The translations under genes and the position numbers were made by a program. From Promethearchaeota archaeon (GTDB lineage Archaea > Asgardarchaeota > Hermodarchaeia > Hermodarchaeales > Hermodarchaeaceae): a stretch of DNA of 12,253 nucleotides. The stretch is from positions 1 through 12,253 of the forward strand of contig JBHLMG010000036.1 in assembly GCA_048938385.1 (NCBI GenBank), given 5' to 3'. Below are positions 1 to 687 of this stretch, piece by piece. Within the stretch, counting starts at the first letter, position 1, and every line of letters begins with the position of its first letter. The notes beneath the pieces were generated by a model. It searched no databases. It worked only from the letters and a program-made list of their open reading frames with translations, and had not been told where the DNA came from.

Positions 1-687
1 AACCCTACCGATGAGGGTTGGTCACGTCAGAAAAATTACCCCAGGGGTATTCTCAGGCCGGACGAGAACGGTGAGACCCTACACAATCACACACAACACC
101 TCGTGCTCAGTGGATGCGGACGCTGGGGTAACCGCCACCACGAGCACCCCAATCACGCTTACGAATCTCGCCAAGTAACACCGACCTGGGACCCTAAACA
201 GAGTCGTCGCGGGCAAGAGTCCATATCGACCCCGCGGCTTGCTTCCTCGATGTCGGCTCTTCCTATCCTGGGGGTGCATTAGCTCCCAAGGGTAAGGCTG
301 TACGCCTGTTAAAAGGGAACGTGAGCTGGGTTTAGACCGTCGTGAGACAGGTTGGATTCTCTCTTTTGGGTGCGTTGGGTATCTGAGGGTCAGGTCCGCT
401 CGGTACGAGAGGAACGGCGGATCGCAGCCTATGGTGTACCGGTTGTCCGATAGGGCATGGCCGGGCAGCTACGCTGTGTCCGATAAGCGCTGAAAGCATC
501 TAAGCGCGAAGCGGGTCCCGAGACGAGATACCCACTCCATGATCATTAGGATTTACCTACGGTGGGATAGGCGACTATAACGCTGGATCGTGGACGAAGG
601 CTCCGGTAAAAGACCGGTTTGAACGAGCGGCTGTGTACGCGTCAAGCTTCGGCGAGGCGTTGAGCAGGCCGCCACGTACCGCCTAAG
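1..687 (+). rRNA. rrl: 23S rRNA, 3' part (domains V-VI), archaeal type, interrupted by an intron at 50..197; 5' end lies outside the window and the 3' end is approximate
   Basis: Conserved LSU motifs are present: GTCAGAAAAATTACCCCAGGG, CCTCGATGTCGGCTCTTCC, GTGAGCTGGGTTTAGACCGTCGTGAGACAGG, sarcin-ricin loop GTACGAGAGGAAC (403-415) and GCTGAAAGCATCTAAGCGCGAAGC. GTCGTCGCGGGCAAGAG...CGACCCCGCGG is an archaeal-style H89. Confidence 0.98.
50..197 (+). other. 148-nt archaeal-type (BHB/BHL, splicing-endonuclease-dependent) rRNA intron without ORF, between A2450 and A2451 (E. coli numbering)
   Basis: Removing 50..197 restores ...CCCCAGGGGTA|ACAGAGTCGTCGC (conserved GGG[A/G]UAACAG). The terminal stem is TCTCAGG(51-57)/CCTGGGA(185-191). 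A 4-bp helix GGGG(44-47)/CCCT(192-195) is flanked by 3-nt bulges TAT(48-50) and AAA(196-198). Cleavage after the 2nd bulge nucleotide on each side gives exactly the expected junction. Confidence 0.92.

Follow-up and report, generated by a model that had tools for sequence, protein, structure and literature searches.

We consider it very probable that positions 50-197 of the window (the whole 12,253-nt stretch of DNA analysed here, which forms the beginning of contig C10 of its source MAG) are a BHB intron of a Hermodarchaeum-type Asgard 23S rRNA, which sits between A2450 and A2451, represents what is left of a mobile intron and would be removed from the pre-rRNA by splicing.

Positions 1-698 of the window constitute the 3' part of an archaeal 23S rRNA, as judged by their match to the Rfam archaeal LSU model (RF02540, 412 bits). 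In this alignment some 140 nt that separate the GGGGUA region from ACAGAG remain unaligned, and high-posterior alignment runs from ACAGAGUCGU (window 198 onward) through to the 3' end, while direct reading of the sequence gives an insertion of 148 nt between GGGGUA and ACAGAG. When the gene was aligned to the annotated 23S gene of E. coli, which starts 2 nt early and thereby explains the raw position count, the junction fell between the two As of GAUAAC, which we take to be A2450 and A2451 in standard E. coli numbering. The host belongs to the genus that includes Ca. Hermodarchaeum yapensis, and NCBI taxonomy places Hermodarchaeum within Promethearchaeati, the Asgard kingdom. Its rRNA sequence occurs in sediment, mangrove, marsh and wetland metagenome runs, and six metatranscriptome runs contain 23-34% of the sampled sequence words. 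The exact pattern of the intron 5' end is matched by JAEOSK010000022 (Ca. Hermodarchaeum yapensis Yap4.bin9.105; hereafter G006) and by a record labelled Ca. Odinarchaeota H3S.115 (G002), both of which belong by kinship to the same genus as the window; together with a further member of the genus, G008, this means that the site carries an intron in all four genomes of the genus that cover it. An earlier note on this DNA, made from the letters alone, had proposed an archaeal 23S rRNA gene, an Asgard-like host and a 148-nt insertion at A2450/A2451, and all three proposals are confirmed: the first by the LSU model, the second by the placement in the genus of Ca. Hermodarchaeum yapensis, and the third by the LSU model, the E. 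coli alignment and the relatives together. The coordinates of the exons, the intron and its structural elements are collected in Table 1.

Table 1. Features of the interrupted 23S rRNA gene and of its intron, in window coordinates.
Feature	Position	Strand	Basis
5' exon: 23S rRNA ending at A2450 (covers helix 74, 3' strand, and the first part of the peptidyl-transferase loop)	1-49	+	RF02540 match; collinear with upstream LSU of G006 and of intron-less L016
148-nt ORF-less BHB (HBh'-type) intron	50-197	+	Unaligned to LSU model; removal gives the sequence of intron-less relatives; homologues in G002, G006, G008
3' exon: 23S rRNA, catalytic A2451 to 3' end	198-698	+	Rfam alignment, high posterior probability from ACAGAGUCGU
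Exon strand (GGGG) of the central 4-bp helix H; pairs with 192-195	44-47	+	RNAalifold; all 4 pairs in 21/21 introns at the site
Central helix H, intron strand CCCU	192-195	+	RNAalifold; 21-intron table
Bulge of three bases on the 5' side (U A / U); cleavage predicted after A49	48-50	+	RNAalifold; sole register giving the conserved product
Bulge of three bases on the 3' side (A A / A); cleavage predicted after A197; no outer helix closing it	196-198	+	RNAalifold; 21-intron table
Inner stem h', 5' strand; pairs with 181-191, C58/A184 mismatch	51-61	+	RNAalifold; compensatory pairs
Inner stem h', 3' strand	181-191	+	RNAalifold; 21-intron table
Second intron helix, 5' strand; pairs with 166-172	70-76	+	RNAalifold; 72-170 varies U.G / U-A / C-G, 76-166 varies A-U / U-A
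Second intron helix, 3' strand	166-172	+	RNAalifold
Apical hairpin of the mini-intron, three stacked helices, loop 120-131	103-147	+	RNAalifold, two both-side changes
3' core common with the HE-bearing intron; contains the former HE stop codon TAA (176-178)	166-197	+	93.8% identical to G008 3' end; G008 ORF ends at the homologous TAA

Two other parts of the window may be described here. Near the 3' end of the rRNA gene, in the helix 98 / ES39 region, about 59 nt (window 535-593) are unaligned to the archaeal LSU model and appear as an insert in the Rfam alignment. Beyond the gene, Pfam assigns to window 819-12251 a CLC channel with CBS domains, a quinolinate phosphoribosyltransferase (QRPTase, nadC-type), NadA, a BNR-repeat protein, a 1186-aa C25 (gingipain-like) peptidase and a double-HTH AsnC-type regulator.

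Across the Asgard archaea, the same site is interrupted in many lineages, a point that the earlier note had overlooked. A 600-nt intron-less query centred on the site matched 209 of 400 Asgard species genomes; in at least 24 genomes, from families f1, f4 and f6, the alignments start exactly at the A2450/A2451 junction, and by hand count about 95 genomes among the matches listed are continuous across it. Other recurrent LSU breaks are found in many Asgard genomes downstream of the junction, one at the tip of helix 89, at a distance of about 29 nt, and one near L2600, at about 150 nt. The window's own LSU gene is continuous at both of these downstream sites, and the relatives G012, G015 and G029 break near window position 348. 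In a separate case, L196 (ENA OVMT01000026, 3319 nt), the LSU rRNA is circularly permuted, with model positions 1697-2987 followed by about 67 nt and then by positions 1-1771, an order to be expected if a circular 23S rRNA molecule had been assembled (compare PMC12918454).

This distribution bears on the suspicion that the rRNA gene with the insert is a dead copy or a secondary one, or that the junction is an assembly chimera at the end of a contig. The contig does begin inside the LSU, 49 nt 5' of the intron, and carries the sole LSU fragment found in the MAG (2.48 Mb), the remaining LSU of which is unassembled; at 89.8% completeness, a second, intron-free LSU copy would be possible. An RF02540 search of the MAG itself returned no match although the window scores 412 bits, which we ascribe to the truncation of the gene and not to its absence. 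Yet the exons score well on the LSU model with high posterior probability, the intron position is shared by G002, G006 and G008, which are independent assemblies of three other species of the genus, long stretches of upstream LSU are present in G006 (about 1.5 kb) and G008, and at least 24 Asgard species representatives break exactly at the site. A contig-end assembly artefact is excluded, because independent assemblies carry the intron at the same place, and a dead copy or chimera is, taken as a whole, very improbable indeed.

Cuts after A49 and A197 leave CCCCAGGGGUA directly followed by ACAGAG, and joining 49 to 198 yields CCCCAGGGGTAACAGAG, which is identical to the sequence of an intron-less Asgard relative (L013) and to that of 8 metagenome contigs identified in a contig scan with the 32-nt spliced junction with Hermod-type flanks. 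The junctions of intron-less relatives read ...TTACCCCGGGGATAACAGAG (the usual archaeal form), ...CCCCGGGGGTAACAG... or, in G024 (L013), ...TTACCCCAGGGGTAACAGAG, and the last of these is the letter-for-letter product of joining 49 to 198. Owing to an A repeat, boundaries at 49-196 yield the same product; 50-197 was chosen over them because only the BHB register selects it. The peptidyl-transferase loop of the product (window 44-49 plus 198-201) reads GGGGUAACAG and not the universal GGGGAUAACAG, through the substitutions A2448G and G2444A. The possibility that GGGGUAACAG is missing a base of the peptidyl-transferase centre was rejected, since the two forms are of equal length and differ by two substitutions: the spliced product is of normal length, and A2448G and G2444A are natural variants in the phylum, common to intron-less relatives. 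The exact rebuilding of GGGGUA/ACAG that the earlier note had claimed is thus borne out as regards the junction, with the correction that the restored loop is a natural variant of the universal sequence. A G at 2448, from which the splice helix gains its fourth pair, is found in all 21 tabulated intron-bearing alleles, as well as in some intron-less relatives (L013, L014 and L016 compared).

Intron-free alleles also exist close to the window. One metagenome contig (L197) holds a complete intron-free LSU that is 88.7% identical to the window exons, and another (L199), in which exon 2 is 94.4% identical to that of the window, as compared with about 91% for other species of the genus, is without an intron at A2450/A2451, yet has roughly 650-700 nt extra elsewhere in its LSU, as estimated from model coordinates. 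The existence of intron-minus alleles in close relatives is what would be expected of a mobile intron. A different arrangement is seen in L192 and L193 (G181 and G209; family f9), where an insertion of about 31 nt, CCCCGGG[...]GGTAACAG, lies a few bases upstream of A2450/A2451 and looks like a separate hairpin-type mini-intron.

The fold of the intron was derived by running RNAalifold on three same-genus mini-introns with no structure supplied. In the resulting structure, the bulge sits 3' of the central helix on each strand, as in tRNA substrates. In BHB motifs, cleavage takes place two bases into each bulge. The inner stem is paired at 10 of 11 positions (51-57 and 59-61 with 181-183 and 185-191), and three of its pairs (54-188, 55-187 and 56-186) are compensatory with respect to Thor-type homologues. 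An outer exon-exon helix is absent: in every intron examined, only 3 of the 6 possible pairs can form, and these are non-contiguous. Since the outer helix is missing and the inner h' is present, the motif falls into the relaxed HBh' class and not the strict hBHBh' class. An alternative register, with the helix at 45-48/191-194 and cuts after U50 and A196, would give GGGGUAUAACAG, which matches no relative, and it was therefore rejected.

The same geometry recurs in the 21 tabulated introns at the site, which come from three Asgard families: the 4-bp helix is formed and both bulges are 3 nt long in 21/21, and the inner stem has at least 6 pairs in 20/21, the weak case being L189 with 2 contiguous pairs. 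By their sequences, these 21 introns apparently fall into three unrelated types, of which the first, to which the window belongs, is found in Hermod- and Thor-type genomes; the second is 144-186 nt long; and the third, ORF-less and 335-423 nt long, occurs in a family including two closed 3.1-3.3-Mb genomes. With the RNAalifold fold and the 21-intron table in agreement on a 4-bp helix, two 3-nt bulges, an inner stem and no outer helix, the conserved BHB motif of the relaxed HBh' kind that the earlier note had described is, judged by sequence, real.

An RNA-based reading of another kind would take the insert for a self-splicing intron of group I, degenerate and belonging to the classic L2449 site, and not for an enzyme-spliced BHB intron. 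One base away lies L2449, which in eukaryotic nuclear rDNA is a familiar insertion point of group I introns (PMC3511172, PMC3679873), and a true group I intron (RF00028, 61 bits) is present elsewhere in the LSU of G008. Nevertheless, the insert yielded no Rfam match, either to group I introns (at E of 10 or less) or to any other family, its 148 nt are too short for a group I core, and only about 86 nt lie outside the ORF in the 665-nt homologue described below. Group I introns need a terminal G, and the insert ends in A under either boundary. Taken together, these points make a group I origin barely conceivable. The same identity was rejected for the Heimdall-type and Thor-type introns at A2450/A2451. 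For the family f4 introns at the site (L174-L183 and L017; 335-423 nt, ORF-less), another reading is possible in which the 5' exon would end in U and the intron in G, as at group I L2449; they have no Rfam group I match, their BHB motif is perfect and their inner stems covary. A K-turn or box C/D reading of the window intron was rejected as well, since on inspection the 8x8 internal loop between the two intron helices is without tandem G.A/A.G, its sequence is unconserved in Thor-type homologues and Rfam gives no C/D match.

As to its origin, no ORF of at least 60 aa is present within the insert (50-197), in line with the earlier note, which had seen no homing endonuclease (HE) gene there but had overlooked that the insert is what remains of an HE-bearing intron. 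The mini-introns of G002 and G006 lie at the same position and measure 148 and 145 nt, respectively, and G008 has a 665-nt intron with the same ends as that of the window. Against this longer intron, the 5' core of the window intron (50-78) is 96.6% identical and the 3' core 93.8%, while the interior (79-165) is only 42.5% identical. Within the G008 intron lies an ORF of 192 aa (L004:2025-2603, minus strand) that contains two LAGLIDADG-like motifs (Pfam LAGLIDADG_3, 3.2e-9) and whose best PDB match, a weak one, is I-DmoI (E about 0.1); a 242-aa homologue of this ORF, with 61% identity, occurs in another Asgard family, where the intron at this site measures 791 nt. The window intron also has a block, CTGGGGTA, which recurs, equally far from the 3' end, within the HE ORF of G008 and within that of one Thor-type intron. 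Apart from this shared block, the case for homology between the interior (79-165) and the 3'-terminal part of the HE ORF is weak, given the low identity. Of the mobile element, the window intron keeps only the terminal cores and the former stop codon, and by this homology the insert is evidently an ORF-less remnant of an HE-bearing mobile intron. The three mini-introns seem to share the limits of their deletion, which points to a single loss that preceded the separation of the species; after that loss, the interior has come to form the apical hairpin (103-147), in which RNAalifold identifies both-side changes in two pairs.

The LSU gene of G008 contains a second intron. At L004:3265-3514 (minus strand), about 600 nt upstream of the BHB intron, there is a group I intron (RF00028, 61.2 bits, above the gathering score), so that both kinds coexist in one Asgard 23S gene; Asgard hosts are absent from a 2018 list of archaeal group I introns (PMC6125680).

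One further idea is that the ORF-less mini-intron has been kept since the RNA itself is useful, either because loop bases 123-131 hold the helix 74 strand of the 5' exon or because the excised circle has a function. Its basis is the conservation of the ends and of the covarying apical hairpin in three species, together with the perfect antiparallel complementarity of the apical loop at 123-131 (CUGGGGUAA) to bases 36-44 of the 5' exon (UUACCCCAG), immediately next to the splice helix. The 123-131 block is invariant in the three mini-introns and derives from Ser-Gly-Val codons of the lost endonuclease ORF. If true, pairing between loop and exon could act in pre-rRNA folding or in the presentation of the splice sites, replacing the missing outer helix; we regard such a role as unlikely.

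The host genome encodes the enzymes that the splicing of a BHB intron would call upon. It has two tRNA-intron-endonuclease genes (PF01974). The product of one, a 186-aa EndA alpha (L140:1474-2034, minus strand), has as its best PDB match 3p1z_B of A. pernix, the catalytic subunit of a heterotetramer (6e-46), possesses the catalytic Tyr, His and Lys, and aligns with 3p1z_B across the Crenarchaea-specific loop with its lysine and across the catalytic His. The second gene (L141:1462-2076, minus strand) encodes a paralogue of 204 aa, EndA beta, in which the catalytic His is replaced and which is non-catalytic. RtcB is present as well (579 bits). The check on EndA subunit architecture that the earlier note had proposed hence reveals a catalytic alpha subunit with the loop and a non-catalytic beta subunit in the genome, and from these sequences the host EndA is assigned the (alpha-beta)2 architecture with an L1 loop. 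Kaneta et al. described Asgard EndA as (alpha-beta)2 with an L1 loop and linked it to relaxed-motif cleavage (PMC5829648), and by analogy with that work the host enzyme would have relaxed-motif activity. With the outer helix missing, recognition of the window intron would depend on this activity, which is predicted for Asgard EndA. Of the earlier suggestion that a tolerant endonuclease is required, the enzyme side holds, in that an (alpha-beta)-type EndA with a specificity loop and RtcB were found, but the inferred requirement itself is not new (PMC5829648).

We propose the following sequence of events. In the pre-rRNA, the terminal GGGG of the 5' exon would pair with the CCCU near the 3' end of the intron. 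The splice sites would be offered to the tRNA-splicing endonuclease by the 4-bp helix so formed, together with both 3-base bulges and the intron stem, in which 10 of 11 positions are paired and the remaining one is a conserved C/A mismatch. An (alpha-beta)2 EndA with a specificity loop would tolerate the absence of the outer helix, and RtcB would join the exons into ...GGGGUA-ACAG... and circularise the intron; cleavage, ligation and circularisation are all steps that we infer. The window lineage would have lost about 517 nt of ORF, with the rest folding as a compact hairpin.

Were the insert not spliced in this way, it would either be kept in the mature 23S rRNA as an expansion, or be excised without ligation as an intervening sequence to leave a fragmented 23S. 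In favour of such a reading is the 3' bulge, which no outer helix closes. BHB geometry, however, is conserved across apparently unrelated intron types with compensatory changes, which argues for recognition by the endonuclease; RtcB is present; and the homologues carry a homing endonuclease typical of spliced archaeal introns. In addition, 148 nt retained between A2450 and A2451 of the catalytic loop, or a chain break there, would be hard to square with a working ribosome. Because of this catalytic position and the conserved motif, retention or fragmentation is implausible, and we hold either to be very unlikely as compared with a spliced BHB intron.

The window intron is a genuine member of an ordinary kind of element, the archaeal BHB rRNA intron, in a decayed, endonuclease-free state, and it is notable mainly for its Asgard host and for its position one bond from the catalytic adenine. 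It provides a documented case for a pattern visible in genome data and absent from the literature searched, namely the presence of many introns, predicted to be enzyme-spliced, in the 23S catalytic domain of Asgard archaea, the closest archaeal relatives of eukaryotes. One genus and a relative would together display the full homing cycle, its stages being an intron with its endonuclease intact, remnants devoid of an ORF and, in a close relative, an allele that is free of the intron. Inserts of this type disrupt the assembly of rRNA and mislead rRNA gene callers and primers, and they are natural test substrates for the Asgard splicing endonuclease.

In the literature searched, with subscription journals outside the search, we found no description of BHB introns in Asgard rRNA, nor of a BHB site at 23S A2450/A2451. 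Archaeal rRNA introns have been described mainly from Thermoproteales and Desulfurococcales, where the ORF-less "remnant" is a recognised category (Jay and Inskeep 2015, PMC4496867), group I introns are known from other archaeal phyla and at other LSU sites (PMC6125680), and some Asgard lineages have high tRNA-intron loads (PMC11291895). Like the remnant introns of Thermoproteales and Desulfurococcales, the window intron has a BHB core, spanning its junctions with the exons, at a highly conserved rRNA site, is without an ORF and would derive from an HE-bearing intron at the same locus, and on account of these last two properties it fits the homing cycle of gain, fixation and endonuclease decay; it differs from them in having an Asgard host and not a hyperthermophilic crenarchaeote, in its location at 23S A2450/A2451 and in its missing outer helix (PMC4496867). 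The I-DmoI intron in the 23S gene of Desulfurococcus mobilis finds its counterpart in the G008 relative, which is likewise a 23S BHB intron with a single-chain, two-motif LAGLIDADG enzyme (192 aa as compared with 188-199 aa), although the sequence similarity of the G008 enzyme is marginal, the insertion site differs and the window copy is without the ORF. Finally, the L2449 group I introns of eukaryotic nuclear rDNA, for example in Physarales (PMC3511172, PMC3679873), are inserted within the same short stretch of the peptidyl-transferase loop and often move by means of LAGLIDADG endonucleases, but they exceed 200 nt, splice themselves as ribozymes and end in G, whereas the window insert bears no ribozyme signature and is predicted to undergo protein-dependent BHB splicing.
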